Below the pieces are notes generated by a model, which was not told the origin of the DNA, made no database searches, and worked only from the letters and a program-made list of their open reading frames with translations. Positions 16,344-58,109 of a DNA stretch of 64,000 bases are shown one piece after another. Positions within the stretch are counted from its first letter, which is position 1, and each line of letters starts with the position of its first letter. The stretch is taken from positions 80,476,001-80,540,000 of the forward strand of contig NC_135816.1 of assembly GCF_964213995.1 (NCBI RefSeq). The letters are read 5' to 3'. Source of the stretch: Mustelus asterias. Lineage: Eukaryota. Both the position numbers and the translations under genes were made by a program.

Positions 16344-16388
16344 CGTTTTGGATTTGCCCTCGGGTTCTCCTGGCCCCCAGTTCAGTGC
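16344..16388 (-). other. Candidate cytoplasmic-tail exon, 45 nt; copy at 52273-52317
   Basis: Acceptor ccttctctcttctatcag, donor CG|gtaggt, symmetric length. Confidence 0.55.
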
Positions 16389-17851: not shown

Positions 17852-17961
17852 TCAACGTTTGCTGATCACATGGACGATGACAATAATCGAGAGAAGAATA
17901 GTCAGAATGATGACAGAGCTGATGATCTTCGCAGTACATGGAGAGCTATAGGATGGTTCAG
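17852..17961 (-). CDS. Copy 1 exon 4, stalk + transmembrane
   Basis: Strong acceptor tttcccttctcctcctccag; ~21 hydrophobic residues then SKR-TGA; alternative in-frame acceptor at 18033. Confidence 0.8.
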
Positions 17962-20900
17962 CTGGAGGAGGAGAAGGGAAACAATCACTGTTAGAGGGAT
18001 GTATTTCACGGCCCATCACTTCACACTCACTGTCTGAGAGTAACAAAAGCAGAGAAAATGACACAGAGATACTGAGCAGTGGGTGCATGGTGGCACAGTG
18101 ATTAGCACTGCTGCCTCACAGTGCCAGGGAGCCGGGTTTGATTCCCGGCTAAGGTGACTGGGTGGAGTTTGCACGTTTTCCCCATGTCTGCGTGAGTTTC
18201 CTCCAGGTGCTCCAGTTTCCTCCCACAGCCTGAAAGACGTGCTGATTAGGTGCATTGGCCACGCTAAATGTTCCCACAGGATACCCAAACAGGCATCGGA
18301 GTGTGGCGACTAAGGAATTTTCACAGTAATTTCATTGCAGTGATAATGTAAGCCTACTTGTGACACTAATAAATTAACTTTAAAGTGAAGCTCCCTCTAC
18401 CCTGTCCCCATCAAACACACCATCCCCATACCCCCACTTCTTGCCTTCAAACAACTGCACAACCTCAAACAGACCATTGTCCGCAGCAAACTACCCAGCC
18501 TTCAGGAGAACAGTGACCATGACACTACACAACCCTGCCACAGCAATCTCTGCAAGATGTACCGGATCATCGACACGGATGCCATCAATCTCACGTGAGA
18601 ACACCATCCACCAGGTACACGGTACATACTCTTGCAACTCGGCCAACGTTGTCTACCTGATACGCTGCAGGAAAGGATGTCCCGAGGCATGGTACATTGG
18701 GGAAACCATGCAGACGCTACGACAACGGATGAATGAACACCGATCGACAATCACCAGACAAGACTGTTCTCTTCCTGTTGGGGAACACTTCAGCGGTCAT
18801 GGGCATTCAGCCTCTGATCTCCGGGTAAGCGCTCTCCAAGGCGGCCTTCACGACACACGACAGCGCAGAATCGCTGAGCAGAAACTGATAGCCAAGTTCC
18901 GCACACATGAGGACGGCCTCAACCGGGATGTTGGGTTCATGTCACACTATCTGTAACCCCCACAACTTGCCTGGATGTGCAAAATCTCACTCGCTGTCCT
19001 GTCTGGAGACAATACACAGCTCTTTAACCTGTGCTTAATGCTCCCTCCACTCACATTGTCTGTACCTTTAAGACTTGATTAGCTGTAAAGACTCGCATTC
19101 CAATCATTATTCATGTAAATTGAGTTTGTGTCTTTGTGCCCTGTTTGTGATCAGAACTCCCACCCACCTGATGAAGGAACAGCCTGTTCCGAAAGCTTGT
19201 GGCTTTTGCTACCAAATAAACCTGTTGGACTTTAACCTGGTGTTGTAAGACTTCTTACTGTGTTTACCCCATCAAATACACCCAGGACATTACAAAATAG
19301 AGCCATTTAACATTTGAATGCAGTTGTTTCTTTGTCTGACTGTGATACTCACTCAGTACAGTTACATTTTTCTCTTCCTCAGACTCACCAGGTTTGTTTT
19401 CATTGCAGACGTCACTCAGTTTGATGCGTGCAGTGTCTTCACTGACGGGGTTCCTGGCCTCACACTTGTACACATTGTCCTCGATCTGTGCTGTGAAATG
19501 AAGCTGTAACTCCTGTCCATTTTCAGAGAGATGATGGATGCTTTCATTCCTCAATGCTTCTTGTCCCATCCACCAACTGAAGCTGGTGTTGTCGCCTGTG
19601 TTCACTGAGCAGCTCAGGGTGATGTTACAGTTCTCTGTGATCTGACAGCTGATCTTTGTTCCTGTCACAGGCTCTGATATTCAGATTGAAAGACAAGAGA
19701 TACATGAGGAAGGAATGTCGGCCCTTGTGGGTCACCTCAATATCCAGCACCCTCACGCCCGCTTCAAGACAACTCTGAACCCCGCTCAACCCTCCATTTT
19801 AACCATTCACTCAGAGTGTGGGATTGTATCCTGGGAATTCTCTCTGGATCAGTCTCATTGGTGACTCCAGTAAGTGGTCCCTGTGACCCTCATTATCTGG
19901 AGGGCACACTCTCGATCTGCTGGGGAATTGGTTAAAGAAGATCAGTCTGGGTTCACAATAGAGAGACTCTAGAATGATGATAGAGTTGTCACTGTGTACC
20001 CTGTTCAGGGAGATAGTGGTGTTGTGATAATGTCACTAGACCAGTAATCCAGAGACCCAGACTAAAGCTCTGCTGGTGTCGGTTCAAATCCAACCATGGC
20101 AGCTGATAGAAATTAAATTCAATTAATAAAATCTGGAATCGAAAACTTATCTCAGCAATGGTGAACATGAAACTGCCATTGATTGTTGTAAAAACCCATC
20201 AAGTTCATAATGTCCTTTAGGGACGGAAATCTGCTATCCTTACCTACATGTGACTCCAGATCCAAAGCAATGTGGTTGACTTTTAACTGCCCTCTGAAAT
20301 TGTCAAGCAAGCCGCAAAGTTCAAGGGCAATTAAGGATAGGAAACAAAGTCTGGCCTTGCCAACAACGCCCACATCCCATGAAAGAAGAAAATATCCCTG
20401 ACGAATGGAATATATTAGAGGCTGTCCTCTCTGATCTCAGTAACATCTGGACTAGGAGACGGTGGTTGAGGCAACAACTCATTTATTTACGTGTGGCAGG
20501 TGAAGGATTATACATGACGGTTAAAATCGTTAGTGTGTTTGACATGGCAGATACTGTGAGGCTGTTCCCCCTTCCCTGCCCCGCTTGGAGATAGTGGAAT
20601 TAGAGGGGTCACAATTTCGGGGTAAGGGGTATTATAGGATACTTAAGGGGCTTGACAGGATAAATGCTAAGAGTATGTTTCCCCTCATGGGAGAGTCGAG
20701 AACCAGGGGGCATCGTCTCAGAATAAAGGATCGCCGATTTAAGACTGAGGCGATGAGGAATTTCTGCTGTCAGAAGGTTGTGAGTGTTTGGAACTCCTTG
20801 CCACAGAGAGCTGTGGGGAAAGATTCCTTGTGTATATCTAATGCTGCAATAGATAGATTCTTGATTAAGCGAATCGAGGGTTATGGGAAAAGGGCAGGAA

Positions 20901-22358
20901 AGTGGCTGTGAGGAATATGGGGTCCCCTATGTTGCAGTGGATGATGGAGCAGGCTTGAAGGGTTGAATGACTGGCTCTTGTTCCTATTTCTCATGGTCTT
21001 GTGGTCAGACTATTCCAGATTGAGAAGAGGAGGAACTGATTTCTCGCAGGGTTTTGAAGATTTGGAATTCTCTCCCCTCGGGAGCTCGGGATTCTCTCTC
21101 GATGAGGATATTCAAGACCAAGATGGAGAGATGTTTTGACAGAAGTCAGATTGAGGGATTTGGGAATCGGGTGGGATGATGGAGTTGATGTAGCTGATCA
21201 GACAGGATCTTATTGAATGGTGGAACAGGCTCAAGGAGCTGAATGACCTCTTATTCCTATCTTTCAGAGAGCAGTGAAGCTCAGTCATCCAATAGAATCT
21301 CACTTACCGTACACATCCAGTTTAACTCTCTCTGTATTTTCCACTTCTGAATTTCCGGTTACAATCACCTCATAATCCCCGGTGTCCGCTCTCTGTAAGT
21401 CACTGATTTGCAGGCTGAAGTTCCCAGGATGAAGTTTTATCCGTTTCTTGTAATCCTCAGCACCAAAATATTGAACATGGCCCTTCATGTATCTTGCTAC
21501 TCTGAGTCTGGGTGAAGACCGTATCCAGAAAACCTCTTCAATCTTCGATCCATGTGGATTCTCCAGAGACAGGTAGACTGACTGACCCAGGGAGCCATTC
21601 ACAGGGAGACGGGCAGCCTGATTCTGAACTGAAGTTTAACAAGAGGAAACAGTCAGTGAGTGCAGAACGAGACCAGCTCAGTGACTGGAGGTTATTTCAA
21701 TTCAGAGCACAACACAGTACAGGAAGAGGCCATTCAACCCATCATGCCCATACTAGTTCTATGACAGTGATCTTCTTAATCTCATTCCCTTCTACTTCTT
21801 CCATCTCACTGCAAATTTACCCCCTTCAAAGTATTTCTCCAATTCCCCCATTTGCAAGTTGCTATTGAATCTGCTTCCACTGCCTTCCAGGCGGCACCTT
21901 CCAGATCACAACAACTTGCTGTGTAAAAACATTCCTCCTCATCCTCCTCTCTGGTTATTTTACTGATTCTCTTCAATCTGTATCTCTCTGTGGTTACCAA
22001 CTCCCCTGTCACTAGAAACACTTTCCCCTCGTTCACTCCATCCAAACGCTTCCTGATTTTGAACGCCTCAATTCAATCTTCCCTTAACCTTCTGTGCTCT
22101 AAGGAGAACAATCCCAGTTTCTCCCAGTCTCTCTGCATTGACTGAAGCCCCTGATTTCCTGGACCTGTTCCAGTAAATTTTCCACATCCTCTCCGAGGCC
22201 TTCAGAGTGTTCCAATGAGAATTTGGACATCAAAATCTCAAATGAGGAAGCAAAACAGAACTGAGAGAGACAGAGAGAACCACAGACACTGAATAAAACT
22301 CACAGATCGATATGGAGAGAGCCAGCGAACAGCAGATTAACCATTTCCCGAACTCCAT
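17852..22358 (-). CDS. CD2/SLAM-family Ig receptor, copy 1 (exons 22358-22304, 21628-21308, 19673-19389, 17961-17852; ~256 aa)
   Basis: Exons join in frame through phase-1 GT-AG introns: MEFGKWLICCSLALSISI|FQNQAARLPVNGSLGQSV..D(T)GDY..KLDVY|EPV..CNITLSC..YKCEARNPVS..C|AEPSYSSPCTAKIISSVIILTILLSIIVIVHVISKR*. A Cys-less V domain plus C2 with YxCxAxNPVS is the CD2/SLAM architecture. The 3' end is uncertain (see findings). Confidence 0.9.
18081..18380 (+). mobile_element. tRNA-derived SINE (HE1/Mermaid-like); copies ~34855-35155 and ~54007-54305
   Basis: A box tggcacagtga, B box ggtttgattcc, gtttcctccaggtgctccagtttcctcccaca core. Confidence 0.8.
18422..19271 (+). mobile_element. Penelope-like element in intron 3 of copy 1
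   Basis: GIY-YIG ORF 18441..18956; ~16-bp flanking repeat ccccatcaaa(c/t)acacc. Confidence 0.9.
19164..19202 (+). ncRNA. Minimal hammerhead ribozyme motif
   Basis: ccac CTGATGA a ggaaca gcc tgttcc GAAA gctt gtgg. Confidence 0.75.
19389..19673 (-). CDS. Copy 1 exon 3, IgC2 domain
   Basis: Acceptor atatcag, donor gtgagt, 285 nt; CNITLSC..FSW..YKCEARNPVS. Confidence 0.92.
20010..20390 (+). mobile_element. Second SINE family with tRNA-like head; copies ~36782-37165 and ~55932-56315
   Basis: B box ggttcaaatcc; LINE-like tail ggccttgccaacaacgcccacatcccatgaa. Confidence 0.6.
20490..22210. mobile_element. Several CR1/L2-type 3' fragments in introns 1-2 (not the V exon); repeated in copies 2 and 3
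   Basis: ILKGLDR..FPLMGESRTRGH..VWNSLP (20585..20911); minus-strand piece 21700-22200. Confidence 0.7.
21308..21628 (-). CDS. Copy 1 exon 2, IgV domain
   Basis: Acceptor aacttcag, donor gtaagt, 321 nt; W in C strand, SLQISDL..DTGDY motif, no Cys. Confidence 0.92.
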
Positions 22359-22770
22359 CTTCCTTCAGTAACAGAAGTGAGGGGTGGCTCTGAGAGATTG
22401 GAGACAATCTTGGGGGAAGGGGGGGTTTTGGTGGTGACGGTGGGACAGGAGAGACAGATCAGAACCCAACAGCCCAGTCACCACCTTCCCTTTACTCCCT
22501 GCTGGACTGCTAACAGTGAGGTAGATAGTTGGAGTGAGATTTGGTTGGATGGTGGGCTCGGGGAGGCTGCACTCTGATCTGGCAGAGTCTCACTATCCAG
22601 TCAGTATTGAAGAGCAGTCCGGTCAGTTGATGCGTGTAAAGCAGACGATAGAATAGGCGAAGAGAGGAAGCCAGGCTGGGAGGAAGTTATTCTGAAATTA
22701 GAGAGAGGCACATACTGGTCACAGTTGTTGAGTCAGAAAGTGCGTGGAGCTGGACCACACCACTTTCCAG
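22240..22770 (-). promoter_or_regulatory. Putative promoter / intron-1 region of copy 1 with ETS-like (GAGGAAG) and RUNX-like (ACCACA) motifs
   Basis: gaggaag at 22244, 22664 and 22680; aaccaca 22278; gaccaca 22753; same motifs in copies 2 and 3; short motifs only. Confidence 0.3.
22304..22358 (-). CDS. Copy 1 exon 1, signal peptide
   Basis: ATG at 22358, MEFGKWLICCSLALSISI+T, donor gtgagt; 55 nt, phase 1. Confidence 0.85.
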
Positions 22771-23809
22771 CTTTGCCTGGGGGGAGGGGGGAGCTCCATC
22801 TGCAAACTATCAGCTCCTGAGACTCCAGCCTTTTATCTAGGCCGACCCTCAGACTGCCATGTGGGGATTGGGCATGCATGAGGTGAGTCCGTGTACCAAT
22901 CTTCAGAAGACAGTGCAGAGGGGGTAGCAAGAGTTGTACACGGGGAGTTTGGGAACAGGATTCAGGGGGTTTGGAGTGAGGGCAGGGTAAGGGGGTTGTC
23001 ATCCTGGTTTATGGCTGTGTAAGGGTGAGGGTTAAGGGTCAGCGATCAGGGCTGTTTGTCAAGGTTTTTAAATGAGGGGTTTTGGGGTCAGGTTTCGAGG
23101 CTCAGAGACTCCTCAGTCTGGGAGCATGGTGTGACATCAGTCTGGGGTCAGGGTGTATGGACAAGGGTCAGAGATTAAAGTCACAATGTGCGTCTTGGGG
23201 CCAGAGGGTGCGTTTGCAGTGTGCAGTGCAGGGTTAGAGTTCACTGACATGTGCAGTAAGGGGTCAGAGATCACTGACCGAGTGCACAGTCAGGGGTCAG
23301 AGTTCACTCACCATGTGCAGTCAGGGTTAAGAGTTCACCGACAGTGTTTGCAGTCTGGGGTGAGGGTTAGCTGCCAGGTTGTGCTGCCAGAGGTCACTGC
23401 CAGTGGGTACAGTCAAACCCCAGAGGTTTGGGTCAGGATTCACGGGTCAGATATGATTTATACCCTCCTGTCTTGAGTGGTAACCTCTGGTGTTGTTTTG
23501 GATCAAATGCTGTTTGAACAGCCAGCGTGGGGGCAGAGGGTGTAGGTCACATGTGGCAAGGCAGAGTTCACTGATTGGAGGGTGCGTGATGAGAGCTGGG
23601 AGGGATCAAGGGGTCCAGCCAGCCTGAGGAAGATGGGGTGGGCCTGAGTGATAGGGAGTGAGGCGAGAGGGATCAGGGCTTTTGGATGTGGAGGCCAGAT
23701 AGGAAGAAGAGATGGAGGAGCCTCTGAGAGAGCAAGGGGCTGGAGGATGGGCAAGGCAAGAGAAATTGAGGAGGAGCTGGTGATGAGGGGGAAGAGAAAT
23801 AATCAACTA

Positions 23810-24025
23810 CAACCCTCCCTATCTCTGTAACCACCTCCAGCCCCTACAACACTCCCTATCTCTGTAACCTCCTCCAGCCCCGACAACCCTCCCTATCTCT
23901 GTAACCTCCTCCAGCCCCAAGAACCCTCCCTATCTCTGTAACCTCCTCCAGCCCCGACAACCCTCCCTATCTCTGTAACCTCCTCCAGCCCCAACAACTC
24001 TCCCTTTCTCTGTAACCTCCTCCAA
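23810..24025 (+). repeat. 37-bp minisatellite, ~6 units (40415-40815 ~11; 59560-60165 ~17)
   Basis: ccctccctatctctgtaacctcctccagcccctacaa. Confidence 0.95.
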
Positions 24026-24299
24026 TTCCAGCCTCCTGAGCATTGCCCGATTCCCATTGGTCCACCATGAGCAGCCGTGCCTTCAGCTGCCTGGGGGCTG
24101 AAACTCTGGAATTCCCTTCCTAAACCTCACCAACTGTCACTCTCTCTTTCCCTCTGTCTTTCTCTCTCTGTCTGTCTCTCTCTCTCTGTCAGTGTCACTG
24201 TCCTGTCTCTCTGTCTGTCTCACTCTCTGTCAGTGTCACTGTCCTGTCTCTCTGTCTGTCTCACTCTCTGTCAGTGTCACTGTCCTGTCTCTCTGTCTC

Positions 24300-27200
24300 T
24301 CTGCCCTATGAGGTTGGGGCTGTCCTGTCTCACATTATGCCGAATGGGGAGGGAAGATCCATAGTATTCGCTTCTAGATCATTGAGAAAGGCTGAGGAAA
24401 AGTATACTCAGGTGAATAAAGAAGGCTTGGACATCAAAATTGGTGTTAAGAGATTTTATCATGTCCTTTATGGTAGGCATTTCATGCTTCTAACAGACCA
24501 TCGGTCCTTAATATCCATCTTAAGTCTGTTCACTGGGATACTGTCCATGACGGCAGCTCGATTGCTAAGCTCGGCGTTGGTGCTGTCAGCCTACTCGTAT
24601 GAGATCCGGTACCGTCAGTCAGAGAAACACGGCAATGCGGATGCTCTGTCAAGGCTGCCTTTTACTGGAGATAAAGATGCTCCCAGCTGGAATCTGAAGA
24701 TAATGTACTTCACACTGGAGGGTAAAGTTCCGCTCACTGCTCACCAGGTGTGGAATGCTATCCAGAATGATCCGATTATGAATCAAGTATTGAATGTGGT
24801 CCAGAGAGGAAGCTCAAGTTGCAGGAACCACCTGGAGCTTTGGCCGTATATGTCCCGAAGATGGGAGTTGCCCATATTGGATGGATGTTTGTTATGGGGC
24901 ATGAGAGTCGTCATTCCCCCATCATTAAGAGGAAAGGTGCTGGAACAGATACACCGAGGGCACCCGGGGGTAATGTGAATTTGATGAACAAGTTGAAGAA
25001 AAAGTGGGATCGTTTGAATCCTGAGCTTTGGTAGGGAAGGCCTTATCGCCCCTTCATCCGTGGGAATGGCCACAATCGCCGTGACAGCGAATCCACATTG
25101 ACTTTGCCGGGCCAGCAGAAGGGCAGATGGTTTTAGTGGTAATAGATGCCCACTCCAAGTTGCCGGGGGTTGTGGCTATGAAGTCCACGTCTGCGGAGTG
25201 AACACGAGACAAATTGATGAAATATTTCCCCGGTTTGGTAATGGGGGACAAGTGGTCAGTGACAATGGATCCCAGTTTGTGGCACAGGATTTGACGGAGT
25301 ACATGGTGCACCATGAAATCAGACATCTGATGTTGGCACCATATCACCCGGCGATGAATGGTCTGGTGGGTGATTTGTTTAGACTCTGAAACAGTCTCTG
25401 AAGTTGTCACAGGAAGGGGAGGGGTCGCTAGGGCAGAGGATAAATAAATTTCTTAGCACAACACGGCACACGCAACAACTCAGTGCTCACCAGCTTTGTT
25501 GATGTTCAACAGAAAAATAATCACCAAGTTCAACCTGCTGTGGCCGGAGGAGACCTAAGACTTGGTTAAACAGAACCAAGAGGGACAGATGACCAGAATG
25601 TGTGAAGTCGAGGACTTTCCAGAGCGAGGAATTATACTTCTGAAGAGAAGTGGACACTGGCTAGCATTGTTACAGGTCCTTTGTCGTACACAGTACAGAC
25701 CAGGATGAATTGGTTTGGGAAGGATATGCGGACCTGTTAGTCACAGCACTGCATCAGAGGTGGGAAGTCCCACAAATGATGGAACCGTCCACGTTGGCAC
25801 CAGCGGGTTTGCCCAGGCCGAGTATTTCAGAGTCAGAGTTGATTCGCCCAAGGGAGGACGCAGCATCTGTGGCACCAGCCACCTGGGGAACGTCAGATAG
25901 GGGACCCTAATGCTGAACAGCAAGACCTTCCAGAATCCCGGGAGACTACTCTGGAAGAGGTTCAGGAAGCAAAGAAACAACTTCTACGAAACTGCCACCC
26001 CCCTGATAAACTCATTGGGTGTGATTCTCCCATTCCATTCCGCTAATTTTTCTGCACAGCAGGCTGGGAGAATCGTGCGTTGGCCGATTCGCGGGATTCC
26101 TGTGAGCAGTCGCGCCGCATTTGCGTCTCCCAGGTCCGTATTTCTGGCGGTGTCGCACTGCACTGGAAATTGTTCGGGAGAAAGGGCGAGCAGTATTTTA
26201 CTACTTAAATGCTATTAGCGGGCCCGGGACTGAATTCTCTTAGCCCGCTCGCATCTCCCACCCCACCAGGTGTATTTCACTCCAGTGGGGTTCAGACTAG
26301 CTCCCCGCTTTTGGGAGTTAACGGCCTGAATCTGCTGGAGTGAAGTGGGGGCAATCGGGTCCCCCCTGGGAGTTGCGCTAAGGAGAGGGTGGTGCCCCCT
26401 AGGCATGGTCCCTGGCACTACCCAAGGGGCAAATTGCACATGCCTGGGGGCACTTGGCACTGCCCATCGGGCATGCAGTGCCAAGTAGACAGAGTCTATT
26501 GGGGGTCTTGCCTTCTGTGGTGGGACCTGCTGGGATGGGACCTCGGGAGTGACCTGTGGGGTTGGGGGGGTCCCGCTGCCACTCTGCATAGGGATCATTG
26601 GGGGCTGGAGGGCAGTCAGCGATCGGGGCGGTCTGGGATGGGGCGGTCAGCTGGGGAGGGCGGAGTCTGCCAAGGGGGTCTGCCATGGGGAGGGGGGGGG
26701 TTGGTGGGGTTCTGCCTGTGGGAGGGTGGGGGAATCGCCACTGCTGGGGGCAAGGGGACTGGAGATCGGGGAGGTCCGGGACGGGGGGGTCGGGGCTGAG
26801 CCTGGGAATGTTCAGGGTGGGGGGGGGGGGGGTGAAATTGGGCCATGCGGGGTGTGGGGTGCAGCATTGTGGGGGTCCTGGGCTGGCCAGCGATCGAGCT
26901 AGCCAGCATACCAGAGGCTGACAGTTTGGGGCCTCTGCACATGCTCAGAGACCTGGTGATTTAAGCCTCTCCAGCGTGAATCGGCCCCGCCGCCTGAAAT
27001 TTAATAATATTCACGCTTGTGGGAGATTCTTGTCTGAAGAGCCACTGAAAAGACCAGCATGAATTACTCCAGTTTTCCCACAAATTCGACACTTAGAATT
27101 TTTTGGGGGGAGAATCGTCCCCATTCTGTCCATTTGTCAGAATGATTTTACATTGTGGTCAGTGGTAGATTGCAACACTCTGTACAAATAGGACTCATTG

Positions 27201-27455
27201 TGTGTAAACATGTTCTTCCTTGTTTGTATGTTTTCCACCTTGGATTTACGGGGGAGGTGATAATATGTATCTTTATATATATATAGAATGTTGAGGTTTG
27301 GGGTACTTTAAGAGTACAGGTCAGATGACCCCTGGGTGACCCGTGGGCTGTTAGCTCCACCCTGTGGTCAGCCTTAGACCTGACTGCGAAAGAGTGCATA
27401 CCTTCAATAAACAACTCCCAGTACTGAAGTATTCAAGCATACCTTGTGATTCCTA
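24300..27455 (+). mobile_element. Gypsy remnant, unit 2
   Basis: ORF 24274..24978 PYEVGAVLSH..FASRSL..KYTQ..KEGL. Confidence 0.85.
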
Positions 27456-28199
27456 ATCCCCCTTAGTCCACAGGGACATGCAGTGAATTCCTTAGCAAAG
27501 GCACTGCCTCGTTCATGATCTCTGGGTCAGAGCAACACACTGGACACTTCCTCGGGCGGAATACTTTTAATCCACCTCTTTTGCTTCAGGGTGCTGCCTG
27601 CTGAGGCCTTACTCTGCTGGCTGGGGTGGGCAGGGCCAGTGAATCGGGTTCTGAGGTCAGTGCCTCAGATAGGGTATTGCTCAGAGCTGGCTCAGTGTCA
27701 GGATCGGGAACAGTGATTGGGACTGGCACTGGATCAGCAGGGCCACGGGATTAGGATTGGGGTTTGCTTCTTCCAATCCCTCGAAAACAGATGGAACTGG
27801 TGGCTGTTGTCCTGGGCGTCGAGTGCCTTTAATTGGTTCACATAATATCATCCAGTCACCAGGCGTCCAGTAACATTTTATGCACTGACAGTGTTGCTTT
27901 ATCCACAACAGAATGGGGACCTGAATCCCTCAGGGACAGGAATGTTCTGGCTGAAAGACCGGCAGCGTTACCTGCTGTCCTACTTCATATTCTACCCGGC
28001 TCACCTTCCCTTTAAAGACAGCCTTACTCTGCTTCTTTCTTTTTGCTGTTTTGATGGCTGCTGCCTTCCGTGCAGCCTGTGTATTATCCAGTCGGGTTCT
28101 TATAGTTTTCTCATGAATAAAGCTGTGACCTCGGGCTCTGACAAGTTGAATCTTGGTAGGGGTTCAATACCTCTCATGGGGCTTCCAGTCTTTAAGAAA

Positions 28200-29227
28200 T
28201 AGAACATAGAACATAGAACATTACAGCGCAGAACAGGCCCTTCGGCCCACGATGTTGCACCGACCAGTTAAAAAAAAAAAAAAAAACTGTGACCCTCCAA
28301 CCTAAACCAATTTCTTTTCGTCCATGAACCTATCTACGGATCTCTTAAACGCCCCCAAACTAGGCGCATTTACTACTGATGCTGGCAGGGCATTCCAATC
28401 CCTCACCACCCTCTGGGTAAAGAACCTACCCCTGACATCGGTTCTATAACTACCCCCCCTCAATTTAAAGCCATGCCCCCTCGTGCTGGATTTCTCCATC
28501 AGAGGAAAAAGGCTATCACTATCCACCCTATCTAAACCTCTCATCATCTTATATGTTTCAATAAGATCCCCTCTTAGCCGCCGCCTTTCCAGCGAAAACA
28601 ATCCCAAATCCCTCAGCCTCTCCTCATAGGATCTCCCCTCCATACCAGGCAACATCCTGGTAAACCTCCTCTGCACCCTCTCCAAAGCCTCCACATCCTT
28701 CCTGTAATGTGGGGACCAGAACTGCACACAGTACTCCAAGTGCGGCCGCACCAGAGTTGTGTACAGTTGCAACATAACGCTACGACTCCTAAATTCAATC
28801 CCCCTACCAATAAACGCCAAGACACCATATGCCTTCTTAACAACCTTATCTACTTGATTCCCAACTTTCAGGGATCTATGCACACATACACCTAGATCCC
28901 TCTGCTCCTCCACACTATTCAAAGTCCTCCCGTTAGCCCTATACTCAACACATCTGTTATTCCTACCAAAGTGAATTACCTCACACTTCTCCGCATTAAA
29001 CTCCATCCGCCACCTCTCGGCCCAACTTTGCAACCTGTCTAAGTCTTCCTGCAAACTACGACACCCTTCCTCACTGTCTACCACACCACCGACTTTGGTG
29101 TCATCAGCAAATTTGCTAATCCACCCAACTATACCCTCATCCAGATCATTAATAAATATTACAAACAGCAGTGGCCCCAAAACAGATCCCTGAGGTACAC
29201 CACTTGTAACCGCACTCCATGATGAAT
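28200..29227 (-). mobile_element. Young 5'-truncated CR1-clade LINE, unit 2 only
   Basis: Uninterrupted ORF 28302..29180 (KFADDTK, VRPHLEYCVQFWSP); (TTCTATG)n tail. Confidence 0.95.
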
Positions 29228-30616: not shown

Positions 30617-30734
30617 CAGTAAGAAGTCTCACAACACCAGGTTAAAGTCCAACAGGTTTATTTGGTAGCAAATACCATAAGCTTTCGGAGCAGAGCTCCT
30701 TCGTCAGATGGAGTGGATATCTGAGCTGGGCTGC
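30617..30734 (-). mobile_element. 118-bp Penelope terminal fragment, unit 2 only
   Basis: 9-bp TSD agactagag (30608-16, 30735-43); empty site in units 1 and 3. Confidence 0.9.
30675..30711 (-). ncRNA. Minimal hammerhead ribozyme motif
   Basis: ccat CTGACGA a ggagc tct gctcc GAAA gctt atgg. Confidence 0.75.
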
Positions 30735-34595: not shown

Positions 34596-34705
34596 TCAAC
34601 GTTTGCTGATCACATGGACGATGACAATAATCGAGAGAAGAATAGTCAGAATGATGACAGAGCTGATGATCTTCACAGTACATGGAGAGCTGCAGGATTG
34701 TTCAG
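34596..34705 (-). CDS. Copy 2 exon 4, stalk + transmembrane
   Basis: AEQSCSSPCTVKIISSVIILTILLSIIVIVHVISKR*. Confidence 0.8.
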
Positions 34706-47200: not shown

Positions 47201-50200
47201 GAAGGGATGACATATTAAACAGGTTAAAAAGTGAGGGTTTATGGGTTAAAAATGAAAAAAGGTCAAGCACAGTACTGGGAGTATACTGCAGATCCTCAAA
47301 TAGTGAAAGGAAGACAGTAGAACAAATATGTAGGCACATTTCTGCCTGTAATAACGAGGGCAATAACAGTAGGAGACTTTAACTATTCCAATATCAACTG
47401 GGTTTCAAACAATATAAGGGGTACAGAGGGAGAATAATTCATGCATTGTGTGCAGGAAATGTTTTTCAACCAACTAGCGACAAGCGCAATGAGAAGGGAT
47501 GCAATTCTAGACCTAGCCTTGGGGAATGAAGAAAGGCAAGTGGGTGAAGTGACAGTTGCCGACTATATCAGGGATAGTGATCACAATTCAGTTAGATTTA
47601 GCATTACCATGGAAAATGACAGAGATAAAGCTAGAATAAAAGTTTTGGGGGGGGAAGGAAAATTTTGTAGAATGGGAAGGGACTTGGCTGAGATATACTG
47701 GACAGCCCTGCTACAGGATAAATTAATCGAAAACCAGTGGGAAGCACTGAACAGCAAGATCCTAAATATACAAAGCAGACCTGGCCCTTCCAAAATTGAG
47801 AATGATGCTGCCAAATCTGCACCCATCGGTTGTCCAGAAGAATTCAGGGGAAGATCAAACAGAAAAAGAAAGTGTATGATAGGAACAAAGAACTAAGCAC
47901 TGCAGATAAATTAGATGAATATCGGAAGTGCAGGGTCGAAATAAAGAAGAAAATAAAGAAATCAAAGCGAGAGCATAAAAAAATTAGCAAGAAAATTTAA
48001 AGAAAACCCAAAAATGTTTTACCAAAATATTATTGGTCAAAGGTTAGCTAAGGGAAAAATGGGACCTATCAGAGATGAAGAAAGGAACTTGTGGATTGAT
48101 GCAGAATCTGTGAGAAGGGTTTTAAATGAATATTTTGTCTCCATGTTTACAAAGGAAAGGGATGATGCACATATAGCAGTCCAGGAGGAACACTGTGGGA
48201 TATTGGATGGAATAATCATAAAGAGAGAGGAAGAACTTGAAGGGTTGCAATCCTTGCAATCCTGGAAATTGATAAGTCACCAGGGCCAGATGGACTGTTT
48301 CCAAGGCTGCTGAAGGAGATCAGGAAGGAAATAGCAGATGCTCTGAAGATGATTTTCCAATCCTCACTAGATAGAAGGGAGGTACCAGAGGACTGGAGAA
48401 ATGCAAACATAGTTCCATTGTTTTAAACGGGATCGAAGAAAATGCCAAACAATTATATGCCAGTTAGTCTTACATTTGGTGGGCAAATTAGTAGATTCAA
48501 CCCTGAGAGATAGGATTAACTGTCATGGAGAAAGGCAAGAATTTGTCAGGGATGATCAGCATGGATTTGCTAAAGGAATAATAAAGGGTTTTTTTCTTGG
48601 AATAAAGAAGGCTGAGGGGTGACTTGATAAAGGTATAAAATTATGAGGAGAACAGATAGCGTGGACAGTATTTCCCTTGGTGGAGAATTCTAGAACCAGG
48701 AGACATTGATTCAAGATAAGTGGCAGTTGGTGTGGAGGGGACATGAGGAGGATTTTATTTTAAGCAAAGGGCAGTGGGTGTCCTGAATTTGCTGCCTGAA
48801 TTGGTGGTGGAGGCTGAGACCCTAAACTCTTTCAAAAAGTACCTGGATCTGCACCTTGAGTGCTGTAAGCTATAGGGCTATGACTTGGGTGCCAGAAGGT
48901 GGGACTGGAAAGGGCACCTGGGCTATCAGCAGACTGGCATGGACAAAATTGGCTGAATGACCTCCTTCTGTGCCGTAACTTTTCAATGGTTCTAAGTGCT
49001 GTCCTTGTCACATTATGGCTCTGGCCTCTTACAGAGCTGGGTGCCACCAAGTCTGAGTAGCATTCTTCTCACAAAGCACATTCACTGGAAGTGTAAGTAA
49101 CGGTTCATTCTGAAATAAGGTGGCCTTTAGCATCTGATCAGGTCAGTCTGGTTTTAATGGGAATTTGATAGCCCAAGGCTTGGCCGCATGAAGACTATTT
49201 GTTCCAGCTCTGCAGTTTGCAAATTGCTGAGTCCGGCTCAGTTTAAAATTGACTTCCTCATTTTGAGTTTTCATCCATGTGCATGAAGAAATATCAATAT
49301 TTGTGTAACAAACCTAGAGGTCATGTGATTCCTGAACACAATAAGGATCCTGTAAATGGACCTTGCTGTGGTTTCTCTTCAGATTGTATAAACTTTACTC
49401 TGTATCTAACCCCGTGCTGTACCTGTCCTGGGGGTGTTTGATGAGGACAGTGTAGAGGGAGCTTTACTCTGTATCTAACCCCGTGCTGTACCTGTCCTGG
49501 GGGTGTTTGATGAGGACAGTGTAGAGGGAGCTTTACCCTGTATCTAACCCCGTGCTGTACCTGTCCTGGGGGTGTTTGATGGGGACAGTGTAGAGGGAGC
49601 TTTACTCTGTATCTAACCCCGTGCTGTACCTGTCCTGGGGGTGTTTGATGAGGACAGTGTAGAGGGAGCTTTACTCTGTATCTATCCCCGTGCTGTACCT
49701 GTCGTGGGGGTGTTTGATGGGGACAGTGCAGAGGGAGCTTCACTCTATATTAACCCCATGCTGTACCTGTCCTGAGAGTGTTTGATGAGGACAGTGTAGA
49801 GGGAGCTTTACTCTGTATCTAACCTTGTGCAGTACCTGTCCTGGGAGTGTTTGACGGGGACAGTGTAAAGGGAGCTTTACTTTCTAACTACTCCATGCTG
49901 TACCTGTCCTGGAAATGATTGATGGGGACAGCGTAGAGGAAGTGTACTCTGTATCTGACCCTGTACTGTACCTGACCTGGGCGTGTTTGATGTGTACAGT
50001 GTAGAGGGAACTTTACTCTGTATTTAACGCCATGTTGTACCTACCCTGGGAGGATGGGGAACTGTAAATATCACTGACTAGGCAACAGCTGAAGTTTTAT
50101 GTATAGTTATGGTTAACACGTTACAGGAAGGACATAATTGCCCTGGAGCAAGTGCAAAGAAGATTCACAAAGATGTGGCCAGGGTTTGAATATTGTAGCT

Positions 50201-53200
50201 ATGAGGTAGGGTTGGATGGGCTCAGATTGTTATCCTTATAACAGAAGAGGCTAATTGAAGTAAACAAGTTCAGAAGAACCCAGGCAGGGTAGACAGGAAA
50301 GACCTGTTTCCCCTCGCAGAGGAATCAATTACCAGGGGGCATGGATTTAAGAACTACCCCACAAGATTTCTCTTTTTTGAAGCAAAGCAAACTTTAATTT
50401 ATTACAAAAGTTCTACAAACTTGACATTGTACATTTTATAACCACGTATGCTGCAAATCTACATTTTTACTTTGTACTGAGATCGCTCACAAAATCCTGA
50501 AGATTAATTCATTTCTTCGAGAAGCAACTCAAATGTATGCCATAGCCCTCTCGAATTCACTTTGATTTCTCATCAGTTTCACACTGTGGCACTTAGACAT
50601 CCAGAGCGGCTTCTCCCAGTAAGTATTCCATTGCCTTCGTGCCCTGACTTTGGACTGACAGACTGGTTTTCCCCAGTCTACTCCCATAGCTTCTCTACTG
50701 CTCCTTCTAAGATAACTATTCAACTAACTGCTTCCTGCCACAAAGTGAACTGTCTTTCACTGAGGTTCCTCCCACTATTCCCATTCTGTCAGCTTCTTTT
50801 CCCCTCATGAATTACAAATACATTTCAACAAGACCATATCTGCAAATAACTTAGGTCAGCAACATCCAGATAACTTAAACTGAAGAATTTTTGAATCCCC
50901 CCCCCCCACTGCCCACAGCCCACCGCCCACACCCAACCCCCACCGCCCCCCCAAACCCCCAACCCCCCCACCCCCCCCACCCCCCCCCCCCCCACCCCCC
51001 CCCCCCACCTCCCTCCCCACCCCCCCACCTCCCCCCACCTCCCTTGAGCAACATGGAAAGGGGATTGATGAAGTAATCCTATCAGATACTCAATGGGAAT
51101 TGTGTGGTTTTCCTTTGCTTCTCTGAACAAGCTTTGAGCACCTTTGATACATCAGATGTGGAGTATGACTGGCAGGTGCTGAGATTTCTCTCTGAAACAG
51201 GAATTGTGTCTGTTTTGGGACCAGACATCCCAGAGGAGGTTACAGAGACAGGGAGAGTTTTAGGGGCTGGAGGAGGTTACAGAGACAGGGAGGGTTATAG
51301 GGGCTGGAGGAGGTTACAGAGATAGGGAGGGTTATAGAGGCTCGAGGAGGTTATAGAGATAGGGAGGGTTGAAGGGGCTGGAGGAGATTACAGAGATAGG
51401 GAGGGTTATAGGGGCTGGAGGAGGTTAGAGAGATGGGGAGGGTTGTAGGGACTGGAGGAGATTCCAAGTTAGGGATGAGTTCATACTGGGATTTGACCAA
51501 GAGGATAAGTGAATAGTCCCTCTCAGAATACACAATGACACTTTCTGTTCCACCTTCCTGACATTCTCAGCCTTGTCACAGGGCAGATTGTCAGCGATTG
51601 TCCTCTGATTGGCTACTGCTGCAATCTTGCTGTGATCGGCTGGGAATTCTGTGATTTTCCTGATGGGATGTCATGGACTGCTCTCTGGAAATGGCCCGGA
51701 ATCAGAATGTCTTTCAGACTGTTGGAAAACACCTCTCCTCTCCCTCCTCTCACTCCCTTCTTCTCCTCTGTCTCCTCCTCAGCCCGTTTCCTCCTTTTCC
51801 TCAGCCATCCAGCTCATAGACAGGTCCCTCTGTCCCTCCTCGAAGTTCTGTGAGGGAGGCAGGAGTCACAACAAGTTATGACTGTGCATCCAGATACTGG
51901 TTTTTGGGTGCTTCAAGCTGAGGGGCTGAACGGAGGGAGAGGGGGAGAGAGAGAGAGGGAGAGGAGAGGAGAGGGCAGGGGAGCAGGGAGATGAGATGGT
52001 GAGGAAGTGAATGAGGGAAAGGGAGAAGGAAGAAGAAGGAACAGCATTAGGGGAGGGAAGTTCAGAGCAGTGAGGAGACAAGGAAAGGGAAGGGTTCTCT
52101 GACGTGAGGGAGTGGGGAGGGAGAGGAGAAGAAAGGGAGGGAGGGGAATGGGAATGGAGGGTCAAGCGAGGAGGGAGCAGGCGAAAGGAAAAGGGATGTG
52201 AGAAATTGAAGGCGATGGAAAGTGTAGCAATGTGGGGGAGAGGGATACAAGTCTACAGAAAGAATCACCTACCGTTTTGGATTTGCCCTCGGGTTCTCCT
52301 GGCCCCCAGTTCAGTGCCTGATAGAAGAGAGAAGGATGGGGGTCAGTGATCCCAGTCCTGACACAGAGCTGGATCCCAATCTCTATCTTCCTGTCTGCTC
52401 TCTTTCTCTTACCCTCTCTCTCAATCACTTGCTCTGCATTCAAAAACCCTCTCAATCCCCAACTCTCAACCATTATCTCTCTCTCTCTCTCCATAAAACT
52501 CATTTATTACCTCTATCTTTCCTGCCTCACAATTATTCTCTCTCAACCATTACCTCTCTCATTCTGTCTCTCCCTCTCTCTGCCTCCCTCAATCTCACAG
52601 TCTCTTTCCCTCTCAATCTCCCACTCTCTTTATGTCTTTCGGTCTCCCTGTTTCCCTGACTTTCTCCCTGAATCTCTGTCTCTCTTTTTCTCTCTCTGTC
52701 CCTCCTTCTGTCTGAATCTTTTCCCATTATGTCGGTCTCTCTATGTTTCTTACCCTTTATCTCTCCCTCTTCCTCTCTCTCAGTATCACGGGGCAGAAGT
52801 TTCAGGCCGCTCACACCCTCAGGGGTTTCTGGTCATGCTGCAATGAACGGTGTTTTGGCTGAGTGCCAAATTCTTTGTCTTTGCTTGCTGCAGCGGTGGG
52901 GCACGAACAGCCGGACAATTCTCATCTAAGTCTCTCCTGTCTTGGTCTTTCTGTCTCTTTCTCTCCAATCCTGTCTATCTCAATCTCTCTCTCTCTTCGA
53001 CTCTTTAAACTCTGGCCCTCTTACCCGCTCAATCTCTCACTCTGTCTCTCCCTCTATCTCATTCACAATCTCTCTCAGTCACTCTCAATCTCTCTCTCTC
53101 TGTCCCCTTCAATTACAATCTCTCTCGCTCTCTCTCTCGTTGCCTCTCACTCTCTTTCTCTCGCTCTGTCTCATTCTGTCTTTAAGGGGATGTCTATAAA

Positions 53201-53777
53201 ATAATGAGGGGCACAGGTCAGTTAGATAGTCAACATCCTTTCCCAAAGGTAGGGGAGTCTAAAACTAGAGGGCAGAGGTTTAAGATGAGAGGGGAGAGAT
53301 ACAAAGAGGATTGTGAGCGTCTGGAACAAGCTGCCAGACGTAGTAGTGGAGGTGGGTACAATTTAGACAGTTACATGGTTAAGACGGGTAAAGAGAGATA
53401 TGAGCCAAACGTGGACGATTGGGAACAGCTTGGTGGTTAAAAAAAAAGGGTGGCATGGACATGTTGGGGCAAAGGGCCTGTTTCCATGCTGTAAACCTCT
53501 ATGACTCTATGACTCCTTGTTCCTCTCTCTCTGTCCCTCTGTCTCCATCACTATATCCAAGAATATTGAAGAGTAACACTCAGTATTATGTCTCTATCCC
53601 TTCTCCCTACCTCTAACTCTCTCTTATTCTCTCTTTTATCTCTGACTCTTTCTCCCTTTCTCTCGCTGTCTCATTCTGTTTTTATCTTCTTATCTCTCTC
53701 TCTCTCCCTCTGTCTCCATCACAATATCCATGAATATTGAAGAGTAACAGTACGATTCAGGAATGAGTTGCTAATAC

Positions 53778-53887
53778 TCAACGTTTGCTGATCACATGGA
53801 CGATGACAATAATCGAGAGAAGAATAGTCAGAATGATGACAGAGCTGATGATCTTCGCAGTACATGGAGAGCTATAGGATGGTTCAG
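53778..53887 (-). CDS. Copy 3 exon 4, stalk + transmembrane
   Basis: AEPSYSSPCTAKIISSVIILTILLSIIVIVHVISKR*. Confidence 0.8.
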
Positions 53888-56800
53888 CTGGAGGAGGAGA
53901 AGGGAAACAATCACTGTTAGAGGGATGTATTTCACGGCCCATCACTTCACACTCACTGTCTGAGAGTAACAAAAGCAGAGTAAGTGACACAGAGATACAG
54001 AGCAGTGGGTGCATGGTGGCACAGTGATTAGCACTGCTGCCTCACAGTGCCAGGGAGCCGGGTTTGATTCCCGGCTAAGGTGACTGGGTGGAGTTTGCAC
54101 GTTTTCCCCATGTCTTCGTGAGTTTCCTCCGGGTGCTCCGGTTTCCTCCCACAGCCTGAAAGACGTGCTGATTAGGTGCATTGGCCACGCTAAATGTTCC
54201 CACAGGATACCCAAACAGGCATCGGAGTGTGGCGACTAAGGAATTTTCACAGTAATTGCATTGCAGTGTTAATGTAAGCCTACTTGTGACACTAATAAAT
54301 TAACTTTAAAGTAAAGCTCCCTCTATCCTGTCCCCATCAAACACACCATCCCCACACCCCCACTTCTTGCCTTCAAACAACTGCACAACCTCAAACAGAC
54401 CATTGTCCGCAGCAAACTACCCAGCCTTCAGGAGAACAGTGACCACGACACCACACAACCCTGCCACAGCAATCTCTGCAAGATGTGCCGGATCATCGAC
54501 ACGGATGCCATCACTCACGTGAGAACACCATCCACCAGGTACACGGTACATACTCTTGCAACTCGGCCAATGTTATCTACCTGATACGCTGCAGGAATGG
54601 ATGTCCCGAGGCATGGTACATTGGGGAAACCATGCAGACGCGACGACAACGGATGAATGAACACCGCTCGACAATCACCAGACAAGAGTGTTCTCTTCCT
54701 GTTGGGGAACACTTCAGCGGTCATTGGCATTCAGCCTCTGATCTCCGGGTAAGCGCTCTCCAAGGCGGCCCTCACGACACACGACAGCGCAGAGTCGCTG
54801 AGCAGAAACTGATAGCCAAGTTCCGCACACATGAGGACGGCCTCAACCGGGATGTTGGGTTCATGTCACACGATCTGTAACCCCCACAACTTGCCTGGAT
54901 GTGCAAAATCTTACTGGCTGTCCTGTCTGGAGACAATACACATCTCTTTAACCTGTGCTTAATGCTCCCTCCACTCACATTGTCTGTACCTTTAAGAATT
55001 GATTAGCTGGAAAGACTCGCATTCCAATCATTATTCATGTAAATTTAGTTTGTGTCTTTGTGCCCTGTTTGTGATCAGAACTCCCACCCACCTGATGAAG
55101 GAACAGCCTGTTCCGAAAGCTTGTGGCTTTTGCTACCAAATAAACCTGTTGGACTTTAACCTGGTGTTGTAAGACTTCTTACTGTGTTTACCCCATCAAA
55201 TACACACAGGACATTACAAAATAGAGCCATTTAACATTTGAATGCAGTTGTTTCTTTGTCTGACTGTGATACTCACTGAGTACAGTTACATTTTTCTCTT
55301 CCTCAGACTCACCAGGTTTGGTTACATTGCAGACGTCACTCAGTTTGATGTGTGCAGTGTCTTCACTGACGGGGTTCCTGGCCTCACACTTGTACACAGT
55401 GTCATTGGTCTCCAGTGTGAAATGAAGCTGTGACTCCTGTCCATTGTCAGAGAGATGATGGATGCTGTCATTCCCCAATGCTTCTTGTCCCATCCACCAA
55501 CTGAAGCTGGTGCTGTCGCCTGTGTTCACTGAGCAGCTCAGGGTGATGTTACAGTTCTCTGTGATCTGACAGCTGATCTTTGTTCCTGTCACAGGCTCTG
55601 ATATTCAGATTGAAAGACAAAAGAAACATGAGGGAGGAATGTCGGCCCTTGTGGGTCACCTCAATATCCAGCACCCTCACGCCCGCTTCAAGACAACTCT
55701 GAACCCCGCTCAACCCTCCATTTTAACCATTCCGCTCAGAGTGTGGGATTGTATCCTGGGAATTCTCTCTGGATCAGTCTCATTGGTGACTCCAGTAAGT
55801 GGTCCCTGTGACCCTCATTATCTGGAGGGCACCCTCTCGATCTGCTGGGGAATTGGTTAAAGAAGATCAGTCTGGGTTCACAATAGAGAGACTCTAGAAT
55901 GATGATAGAGTTGTCACTGTGTACCCTGTTCAGGGAGATAGTGGTGTTGTGATAATGTCACTGGATCAGTAATCCAGAGACCCAGACTAAAGCTCTGCTG
56001 GTGTCGGTTCAAATCCAACCATGGCAGCTGATAGAAATTAAATTCAATTAATAAAATCTGGAATCGAAAACGTATCTCAGCAATGGTGAACATGAAACTG
56101 CCATTGATTGTTGTAAAAACCCATCAAGTTCATAATGTCCTTTTGTGACAGAAATCTGCTATCCTTACCTACATGTGACTACAGATCCAAAGCAATGTGG
56201 TTGACTTTTAACTGCCCTCTGAAATTGTCAAGCAAGCCGCAAAGTTCAAGGGCAATTAAGGATAGGAAACAAAGTCTGGCCTTGCCAACAACGCCCACAT
56301 CCCATGAAAGAAGAAAATATCCCTGACGAATGGAATATATTAGAAGCTGTCCTCTCTGATCTCAGTAACATCTGGACTAGGAGACGGTGGTTTTGGCAAC
56401 AACTCATTTATTTACGTGGGGCAGGTGAAGGATTATACATGACGGTTAAAATCGTTAGTGTGTTTGACATGGTAGATACTGAGAGGCTGTTCCCCCTTCC
56501 CTGCCCCGCTTGGAGATAGTGGAATTAGAGGGGTCACAATTTCGGGGTAAGGGGTATTATAGGATACTTAAGGGGCTTGACAGAATAAATGCTGAGAGTA
56601 TGTTTCCCCTCATGGGAGAGTCGAGAACCAGGGGGCATCGTCTCAGAATAAAGGATCGCCGATTTAAGACTGTGTTGTCCAGGAATTTCTGCTGTCAGAA
56701 GGTTGTGAGTGTTTGGAACTCCTTGCCACAGAGAGCTGTGGGGAAAGATTCCTTGTGTATATCTAATGCTGCAATAGATAGATTCTTGATTAAGCGAATC

Positions 56801-58109
56801 GAGGGTTACGAGAAAAGGGCAGGAAAGTGGCTGTGAGGAATATGGGGTCACCTATGTTGCAATGGATGATGGAGCAGGCTTGAAGGGTTGAATGACTGGC
56901 TCCTGTTCCTATTTCTCATGGTCTTGTGGTCAGACTATTCCAGATTGAGAAGAGGAGGAACTGATTTCTCGCAGGGTTTTGAAGATTTGGAATTCTCTCC
57001 CCTCGGGAGCTCGGGTTTCTCTCTCGATGAGGATAATCAAGACCAAGATGGAGAGATGTTTTGACAGAAGTCAGATTGAGGGATTTGGGAATCGGGTGGG
57101 ATGATGGAGTTGATGTAGCTGATCAGACAGGATCTTATTGAATGGTGGAACAGGCTCAAGGAGCTGAATGACCTCTTATTCCTATCTTTCAGTGAGCAGT
57201 GAAGCTCAGTCATCCAATAGAATCTCACTTACCGTACACTTCCAGTTTAACTCTCTCTGTATTTTCCACTCCTGAATTTCCGGTTACAATCACCTCATAA
57301 TCCCCGGGGTCCGCTCTCCGTAAATCACTGATTTGCAGGCTGAAGTTCCCAGGATGAAGTTTTATCCGTTTCTTGTAATCCTCAGCACCAAAATATTCAA
57401 CATGGCCCTTCATGTATCTTGCTACTCTGAGTCTGGGTGAAGATCGTTTCCAGAAAACCTCGTCAATCTTCAATCCATGTGGATTCTCCAGAGACAGGTA
57501 GACTGACTGACCCAGGGAGCCATTCACAGGGAGACGGGCAGCCTGATTCTGAACTGAAGTTTAACAAGAGGAAACAGTCAGTGAGTGCAGAACGAGACCA
57601 GCTCAGTGACTGGAGGATATTTCAATTCAGAGCACAACACAGTACAGGAAGAGGCCATTCCACACATCGGGCCCATACTAGTTCTATGACAGTGATCTTA
57701 TTAATCTCATTCCCTTCTACTTCTTCCATCTCACTGCAAATTTACCCCCTTCAAAGTATTTCTCCAATTCCCCCCTTTTTGCAAGTTGCTATTGAATCTG
57801 CTTCCACTTTTGAACGCCTCAATTCAATCTTCCCTTAACCTTCTGTGCTCTAAGGAGAACAATCCCAGTTTCTCCCAGTCTCTCTGCGTTGACTGAAGCC
57901 CCTGATTTCCTGGACCTGTTCCAGTAAATTTTCAACATCCCCTCCGAGGCCTTGAGAGTGTTCCAAGGAGAATTTGGACATCAAAATCCCAAATGAGGAA
58001 GCAAAACAGAACTGAGAGAGACAGAGAGAACCACAGACATTGAATAAAACTCACAGATTGATACGGAGAGAGCCAGCGAACAGCAGATTAACCATTTCCC
58101 GAACTCCAT
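53778..58109 (-). CDS. CD2/SLAM-family Ig receptor, copy 3 (exons 58109-58055, 57553-57233, 55597-55313, 53887-53778; ~256 aa)
   Basis: Same exon structure, splice sites intact, frame open. Confidence 0.9.
54348..55195 (+). mobile_element. Penelope-like element in intron 3 of copy 3
   Basis: GIY-YIG ORF 54485..54880. Confidence 0.9.
55088..55126 (+). ncRNA. Minimal hammerhead ribozyme motif
   Basis: Identical to 19164-19202. Confidence 0.75.
55313..55597 (-). CDS. Copy 3 exon 3, IgC2 domain
   Basis: 285 nt, AG/GT intact, overlaps ORF 55188..55592. Confidence 0.92.
57233..57553 (-). CDS. Copy 3 exon 2, IgV domain
   Basis: 321 nt, AG/GT intact, overlaps ORF 57225..57527. Confidence 0.92.
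58055..58109 (-). CDS. Copy 3 exon 1, signal peptide
   Basis: MEFGKWLICCSLALSVSI+T, donor gtgagt. Confidence 0.85.

Follow-up and report, generated by a model that had tools for sequence, protein, structure and literature searches.

Short-tailed CD2/SLAM-type receptor genes in a triplicated array of Mustelus asterias and a candidate paired-receptor partner nearby

Three array genes and an ITSM-bearing neighbor

The window analyzed here is a 64,000-nucleotide stretch of the genome of the shark Mustelus asterias (NCBI RefSeq assembly GCF_964213995.1, contig NC_135816.1, positions 80,476,001 to 80,540,000). Self-alignment delimited three tandem units within it, spanning 4912 to ~60360, and in each of them a single gene on the minus strand is followed by a spacer rich in transposons. 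The three genes, copies A, B, and C, are short-tailed or tail-less receptor genes of the CD2/SLAM type; their leader-V-C2-transmembrane parts occupy 22358-17852, 38963-34596, and 58109-53778, respectively. A fourth gene, D, lies 20 to 57 kb outside the window in the opposite orientation to the array and bears switch motifs of the immunoreceptor tyrosine-based type (ITSMs). The relationship of the array to gene D, as candidate halves of a receptor pair, is the subject of this report. The units extend beyond the interval that an initial annotation had assigned to the array, and the gene cluster as a whole extends beyond the window, genome searches having found further copies to its left. The features are as follows.

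4912..24300, no strand assigned: repeat unit with copy A, gene plus downstream spacer rich in transposable elements (self-alignment)
24340..41320, no strand assigned: repeat unit with copy B (self-alignment)
41326..60360, no strand assigned: repeat unit with copy C (self-alignment)
22304..22358, minus: copy A exon 1, leader (splicing; other sharks' NCBI proteins have this leader)
21308..21628, minus: copy A exon 2, V domain, no cysteine (Pfam V-set, E 6e-11; PDB SLAMF6, E 2.6e-6)
19389..19673, minus: copy A exon 3, C2 domain with C141, C147, C196, and C215, plus C135
17852..17961, minus: copy A exon 4, stalk, C-x-x-K232, hydrophobic run, H251
16344..16388, minus: copy A exon 5, short cytoplasmic tail
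15874..15921, minus: copy A exon 6, coding part, ending in ELDG and a stop, no ITSM
34596..38963, minus: copy B, exons 38963-38909, 38407-38081, 36445-36161, and 34705-34596
51800..58109, minus: copy C, exons 58109-58055, 57553-57233, 55597-55313, 53887-53783, 52317-52273, and 51847-51800
G000:C16:80418681-80456149, plus: gene D, ITSM-bearing partner, six exons (NCBI XP_078087452.1)

Splicing by coordinates and translation yielded open frames of 256, 258, and 256 amino acids (aa) for A, B, and C, with phase-1 GT-AG introns, which confirms the array of three intact genes described in the initial annotation. The assignment of four exons to each gene did not hold: A and C comprise six coding exons, with exons 5 and 6 supplying a 29-residue tail that ends in ELDG, whereas copy B, which has an in-frame 6-nt insertion in its V exon, has lost exons 5 and 6 by deletion. 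Evidence for the additional exons comes from NCBI model XP_078087451.1, which includes both, and from a 529-nt contig of run X1 that is spliced between exons 4 and 5 at a GT-AG intron and joins exons 5 and 6 within two bases of the predicted position; the RNA status of this run is a guess, and its source is likely a relative, since the contig differs at 8 of 107 and 4 of 221 letters. The exon 4 donor is weak in all three copies (GTTGAG, at 17856 in A), and read-through meets a stop two residues past the hydrophobic run (17854-17852 in A and 53778 in C), so two protein endings are possible; they extend 2 or 31 residues past the end of the helix and contain neither a tyrosine signaling motif nor an ITSM match. 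Both endings occur among NCBI models, in M. asterias and in Cetorhinus, and the four-exon form of copy C corresponds to XP_078087788.1. Loss of the exon 4 donor as a Mustelus novelty was considered and rejected because the Cetorhinus models show the same two endings.

Model XP_078087451.1 (489 aa, "Ly-9-like," four domains) fuses exons 1 to 3 of B (34596-38963) to exons 2 to 6 of A (15874-21628); it may be an annotation chimera or a product of read-through following the loss of B's last exons, a possible route to a V-C2-V-C2 architecture, and this mixture of exons from two genes is an annotation trap for users of the NCBI protein. Skipping of exon 4 (19389 to 16388 and 55313 to 52317) preserves the frame and is predicted to give a secreted form, a layout that is present in a Cetorhinus model. 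An extra cysteine, Cys135 (about 19646), is found in A, B, and C where D has tyrosine, and exon 4 encodes one or two stalk cysteines, both of which are retained in B; a dimer or an intrachain bond is possible.

The V and C2 exons of copy A are near-identical to those of gene D, and over all three copies the amino acid identity to D is 90 to 92% in V and 85 to 92% in C2. There are one to three synonymous differences per exon (proportion of synonymous differences [pS], 0.018 to 0.042), which is approximately the distance between the repeat units. Local DNA alignment confined this likeness to the exons and their immediate edges (V plus 41 and 21 nt; C2 plus 135 and 6 nt); the leader and transmembrane exon of D are unrelated to those of the array, and no match to the array leader or transmembrane exon was found in D. 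Five sites are informative across A to D, and all three 2:2 partitions are represented among them. Gene conversion is very probably the cause of the exon likeness. The tail of D contains TIYACV and TVYDTI, both of which fit the ITSM consensus TxYxxI/V given in a source that lists SLAMF2, SLAMF8, and SLAMF9 as lacking the motif (PMC10213746); D thus has two ITSMs, and A to C have none in either splice form. A claim of positive selection was rejected, as the pN/pS ratio among copies depends on one to three synonymous changes per exon, too few for such a claim. The cluster also holds two dead copies of the array type: a V-exon fragment within intron 3 of D (C16:80442460-80445580, minus), without exon 1 and about 84% like A, and a pseudogene (C16:80471408-80473850, plus) whose V is broken and whose C2 is split by a repeat, the C2 halves being 97 to 99% like A and the flanks 76 to 79%.

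The units are 17 to 19.5 kb long and diverge pairwise by 2.37%, 2.61%, and 2.58% (323/13608, 484/18546, and 336/13030 aligned bases, one A-C alignment block overlapping another). Unit B has no counterpart of 13545-17193 and carries a private insertion of a long interspersed nuclear element (LINE) at about 28200-29238. The two unit junctions are built alike and all three pairs of units are equally distant, so the triplication would have arisen by two unequal crossovers close in time; it would give the short-tailed partner a higher dose and more variety. A gypsy-like segment common to the units has 13 to 28 stops per frame in each unit, in agreement with the decayed shared transposon frames noted initially, and at the substitution and indel rates seen in the units themselves, neutral copies were expected to carry ~3.8 coding lesions, where none was observed (P about 0.02), which is modest evidence that the intact copies are under selection. 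At the mutation rate of the epaulette shark (7e-10 per generation; 95% confidence interval, 1.4-14.1e-10; PMC10587355), 2.5% divergence corresponds to 18 million generations (range, 9 to 89); because this rate belongs to another species and is based on five mutations, the figure says only that the triplication, probably millions of generations old, need not be young in years. The expansion had been called young and lineage specific, a description that suits the triplication only: the gene type occurs in other sharks and in rays and predates the shark-ray split, and the divergence of the units amounts to ~18 million generations.

Family membership and distribution of the two gene types

The array genes are of CD2/SLAM type, as the initial annotation had proposed; the V exon and the fold decide this, together with the second disulfide of C2. 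Nothing observed contradicts the further proposal that they are not orthologous to any one named SLAMF gene. The V exon matches the Pfam V-set, its best PDB matches being SLAMF6 and SLAMF5, with CD48 fourth. Members of the family (SLAMF1-9, CD2, and CD58) have an N-terminal V domain without the canonical disulfide and a C2 domain with two disulfides (PMC12084948); similarly, A, B, and C have no cysteine between residues 11 and 134, and C141, C147, C196, and C215, which all 22 aligned relatives retain, would pair to form the two SLAMF-type C2 disulfides. The motif YxCxAxNPVS, which had been taken as defining the family, is nondefining: that of the array copies is YKCEARNPVS, CEA carries the nearly identical YKCETQNPVS, and CEA is the best sequence match of the C2 exon alone (E 2e-9). 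With a family profile, SLAMF6 ranked first (4e-17) and CEA second (3e-15). Comparison of the predicted fold (predicted local distance difference test score [pLDDT], 72; predicted template modeling score [pTM], 0.48) placed CD48, CD2, CD58, and NTB-A at ranks 1 to 7 and mouse CEACAM1 13th; the top four VIA-align matches were of the CD2 family, with Z scores of 13.0 to 13.6, yet these were within 1 of nectin-1. Named Atlas neighbors were mainly SLAM labeled, and one was HEPACAM-like. Gene D shares two TxYxxV/I motifs with the family and is 31% identical to cuckoo SLAMF1 over 194 aa, whereas the array copies differ in having no ITSM. This lack they share with SLAMF8, SLAMF9, and CD48, a short basic tail likening them to SLAMF9 and a possible glycosylphosphatidylinositol (GPI) form to CD48. 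The literature examined describes no mammalian SLAMF case in which a signaling and a short-tailed gene have a near-identical ectodomain in common. Against a viral library, the top named fold matches of the model were the monkey cytomegalovirus membrane proteins S30, A33, A45, and A44, which we take to be captured SLAMF genes.

Protein searches recovered both the short-tail and the ITSM types in six sharks and six rays or skates, 12 elasmobranch species in all. In ectodomain, V, and C2 trees (23 rows, 11 versus 12 by type), the types group by species; a single short-tail clade was rejected by the approximately unbiased (AU) test (P = 6e-67, 4e-48, and 2e-47, respectively), and the type label needs eight changes on the ectodomain tree. 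Shark short-tail ectodomains are 84 to 94% identical to the best-matching ITSM type of the same species versus 57 to 80% to the short-tail type of another genus, the former being closer than any of the latter for 11 of 11 copies, whereas their transmembrane exons are 18 to 32% identical to the same-species ITSM type versus 50 to 81% to the short-tail type of another genus (one ray protein was left out of the identity comparison, and two further rows were left out of the transmembrane tree). The short-tail transmembrane exon is recognizable from hexanchiform sharks to rays: all 18 short-tail rows have C-x-x-K/R with His or Gln at +19, and none of the 31 ITSM-type rows has C-x-x-K/R among its first 20 residues. 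No short-tail row contains an ITSM, and tails are present in all seven ray and skate short-tail models and in Heptranchias. The subfamily is much more expanded in rays, where V-only and multi-V forms occur alongside several with ITSMs.

In a representative search, 2 of 123 new proteins matched the short-tail transmembrane profile, namely, one ray-type V-only isoform and one turtle protein (6.4 bits, weak); this search was clustered at 50%, so that the short-tail type may be hidden in it, and the single Callorhinchus match among the ten named is of the ITSM type. The turtle SLAM-like protein XP_034612318.1 combines C-x-x-K with a His at +19, and its tail is short and basic. Among 227 proteins, 148 of them with a hydrophobic segment, it alone carries the motif in a transmembrane position without being of the elasmobranch short-tail type; because the motif was defined afterwards, this match is a lead. 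The tail of SLAMF9 is likewise basic and short (PMC7078004), and as of 2018 this protein was reported to have no known ligand or signaling mode (PMC6145869). It is a speculative and rather unlikely extension that the C-x-x-K/R...H exon is an ancestral activating module of jawed-vertebrate SLAMs, paired with the ITSM type by conversion since before the shark-ray split and persisting in the turtle protein and possibly in SLAMF9; were it true, the orphan mammalian SLAMF9 would signal via an immunoreceptor tyrosine-based activation motif (ITAM) adaptor.

A candidate receptor pair and its alternatives

We suggest, with a probability of roughly 0.52, that the array is the short-tailed activating half of an old SLAM receptor pair with gene D, matched by exon-limited conversion and signaling through an FcR-gamma-type adaptor. 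Features of paired receptors found here are a near-identical ectodomain with a different transmembrane region and tail, linkage, exon-limited likeness, and a tree that follows species. Repeated exon-limited conversion between inverted neighbors would keep the binding surface matched, the two types would share a ligand, and a microbe that binds the V face of D could be the selective reason. By way of its ITSMs, gene D would either activate, with SAP or EAT-2, or inhibit, with SHP-1 or SHP-2, as described for SLAM ITSMs (PMC4718992), so that the two halves may or may not signal in opposite directions. The short-tail copies would recruit an ITAM adaptor via K232, by analogy to receptors in which an N-terminal NxxR transmembrane motif and a short tail mark FcR-gamma association (PMC2413239), a motif that is also found in Xenopus CD2/SLAM members (PMC4536121). 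Adaptor binding and an activating output of the array copies are about an even bet. A predicted complex of the copy C transmembrane segment with two FcR-gamma-like segments scored 0.16 against a mark of 0.34 and does not count as evidence.

The Xenopus CD2/SLAM and FCRL NxxR members likewise belong to an expanded family and have a short tail, a basic residue at the N-terminal transmembrane edge, and tyrosine-tailed partners. They differ in carrying NxxR where the shark has C-x-x-K/R, in having the tail on the same exon where the shark has separate exons, and in that FcR-gamma association is shown for FCRL, whereas in the shark it is proposed by analogy. Receptor pairs with a comparable evolutionary pattern are CEACAM1/CEACAM3 and other mammalian CEACAMs (PMC2832619), the Xenopus ceacam pairs (PMC5112662), and Siglec-11/16 (PMC5701461), for which inverted orientation, exon-limited conversion tracts, within-species grouping of the binding domain, and changes on the CC'FG face are described. 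These pairs belong to different families; in the shark, V and C2 are both converted, across 16 kb of D intron, and the pattern extends over sharks and, more weakly, rays.

Several observations weigh against the proposed pair. Protein searches retrieved no short-tail type for four carpet sharks, Hypanus, or Narcine, although absence is not thereby established; in rays, only four of seven short-tail proteins are closer to the same-species ITSM type, with two ties and one reversal, and three stingray and manta short-tail ectodomains cluster together. The transmembrane tree is partly circular and weakly supported (92/96 unstarred; 76), and it shows only homology across species because the types were defined by the transmembrane region and tail; all homologs are automatic gene models. 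Of 18 amino acid differences among A to D, 13 fall on the C-C'-C''-F-G side (P = 0.012), but the borders of this face were drawn after the variable sites were seen, and the enrichment over six species pairs (36/287 versus 14/196; P = 0.068) was not significant. The transmembrane motif is C-x-x-K/R, with Lys in M. asterias, and not NxxR, so the comparison with NxxR receptors is a works-like claim only, and in none of the 18 rows does the best 21-residue hydrophobic window include the basic residue, which falls just beyond its edge. Finally, unspliced exon 4 ends straight after the hydrophobic run and copy B is tail-less, which fits a GPI-anchored or tail-less form.

This last point leads to the most serious alternative, which we regard as possible but clearly less probable than an activating pair: the array copies may be nonsignaling ligands or decoys, GPI anchored or tail-less like CD48 and CD58, that bind D or the binder of D via the shared V face, with conversion preserving a self-recognition match. 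There is precedent in that most SLAMs are self-ligands and CD48 is GPI anchored (PMC4718992). The weak exon 4 donor with its immediate read-through stop, the models ending at exon 4 (copy C and two Cetorhinus genes), the loss of the tail exons from copy B, and the lack of an ITSM in every short-tail row all favor this reading. A GPI signal consists of a small-residue site, a polar spacer, and a hydrophobic end, and S224-Y225-S226 with the sequence that follows fits such a signal by eye. It requires no basic residue, however, and the basic residue is invariant here; moreover, the only spliced contig, that of run X1, includes the tail, as do all seven ray and skate short-tail models and that of Heptranchias. 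The duplicates might instead be redundant products of birth and death and neutral drift, with no lasting pair and the short-tail gene rebuilt in each lineage by one-time duplication of ITSM-type exons. The two dead copies, the two exons missing from B, and a P value of only about 0.02 for selection on intactness are compatible with this, but conservation of the short-tail transmembrane exon from hexanchiform sharks to rays, separate ectodomain exchange in catsharks, lamniforms, Mustelus, and Heptranchias, and the mosaic sites among A to D make it improbable.

Two further alternatives concern the identity and the reality of the array, and we consider both to be very improbable. The genes might be CEACAM- or HEPACAM-like: CEA is the first match for C2 alone and the second with the family profile, a few ray homologs are labeled HEPACAM2-like or CEACAM5-like, and CEACAMs likewise form converted pairs. 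Against this stand the first matches of the V exon to SLAMF6 and SLAMF5, the CD2-family top ranks of the fold, and the four invariant C2 cysteines; the CEACAM locus is flanked by LIPE and BCL3 (PMC5112662), and LIPE, the one of these two markers that was searched, maps to C20. The array might also be an assembly artifact in which haplotypes were placed in tandem, since the contig alignment covers exons 4 to 6 of copy A and no unit junction. Three copies, every pair of which is ~2.5% apart, and copy-specific kilobase indels argue otherwise, and letters specific to A, C, and B are present in contigs of runs X3, X5, and X6, which may include the assembly's own source.

Conversion-maintained paired receptors are already known, as are activating-type SLAM members in frogs, and there is nothing unusual in three tandem copies of a SLAM-like gene; it is the pair that matters. 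No shark or ray SLAM pair was found in the openly accessible papers searched; genome-paper supplements could list such genes. In the available text, a study of nurse shark T cells notes Slamf6 and nothing further (PMC10529500), and that of PMC13278318 makes no mention of SLAM. If the proposed pair is real, inhibitory/activating (or receptor/decoy) SLAM pairing would extend to the most ancient lineage of jawed vertebrates, with conversion maintaining it throughout the shark radiation; it would suggest that pathogens have long exerted pressure on a single leukocyte receptor of sharks and mark out the candidate face. The pair also offers a concrete test case for signaling by SLAMs that lack ITSMs. 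An expansion of the CD2 family in cyprinids has reportedly been observed as well.

Further features of the cluster and genome

Minisatellite arrays with copy numbers that vary by unit are found with repeats of 69 bp (13307-14033, 33653-33878, 49393-50050, and 60932-61661) and 37 bp (15196-15549, 23809-24024, 40412-40814, 51233-51475, and 59559-60141), and the breakpoint of the copy B deletion sits at a 69-bp array. A 326-codon open frame resembling a LINE reverse transcriptase is present at 28302-29282, in unit B only. Intron 3 of each copy contains a repeat fragment with a nuclease-like frame (18384-19271, 35158-36043, and 54315-55195), presumably Penelope-like; the same family splits the C2 of the pseudogene and forms an inverted pair at 303-1680.

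The flank markers of the SLAM and CD2 clusters, VANGL, CASQ, and nicastrin, map elsewhere: VANGL and CASQ to C17, CASQ also to C230, and nicastrin to C4643, with none found on C16 by a set of searches of which one was stricter than the others. A scan of 248 of 266 frames for flanking genes gave transposon-type domains only and no nonrepeat Pfam match, short exons being able to escape such a scan. Two transmembrane exons of the T-cell receptor (TCR) zeta family, with an acidic residue, are encoded in the genome on C275 and C17; they are presumably FcR-gamma and CD3-zeta, and their presence favors the proposed adaptor.

A divergent V-like exon lies 43 kb to the right of the window (about G000:C16:80582957-80583292, plus); it is open and bounded by phase-1 AG/GT sites, with a CD2/SLAM-type start and extra cysteines. 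Its profile match is weak (E 0.027), no C2 exon was found within the fetched flank, and no clear PDB match was found in the part searched. More distant V and C2 exons resembling those of SLAM and CD2 occur on C1352, C676, C8, C3, and C2353, including a V-C2 pair on C1352 and SLAM/CD2-like genes on C8 near 14.2 Mb.

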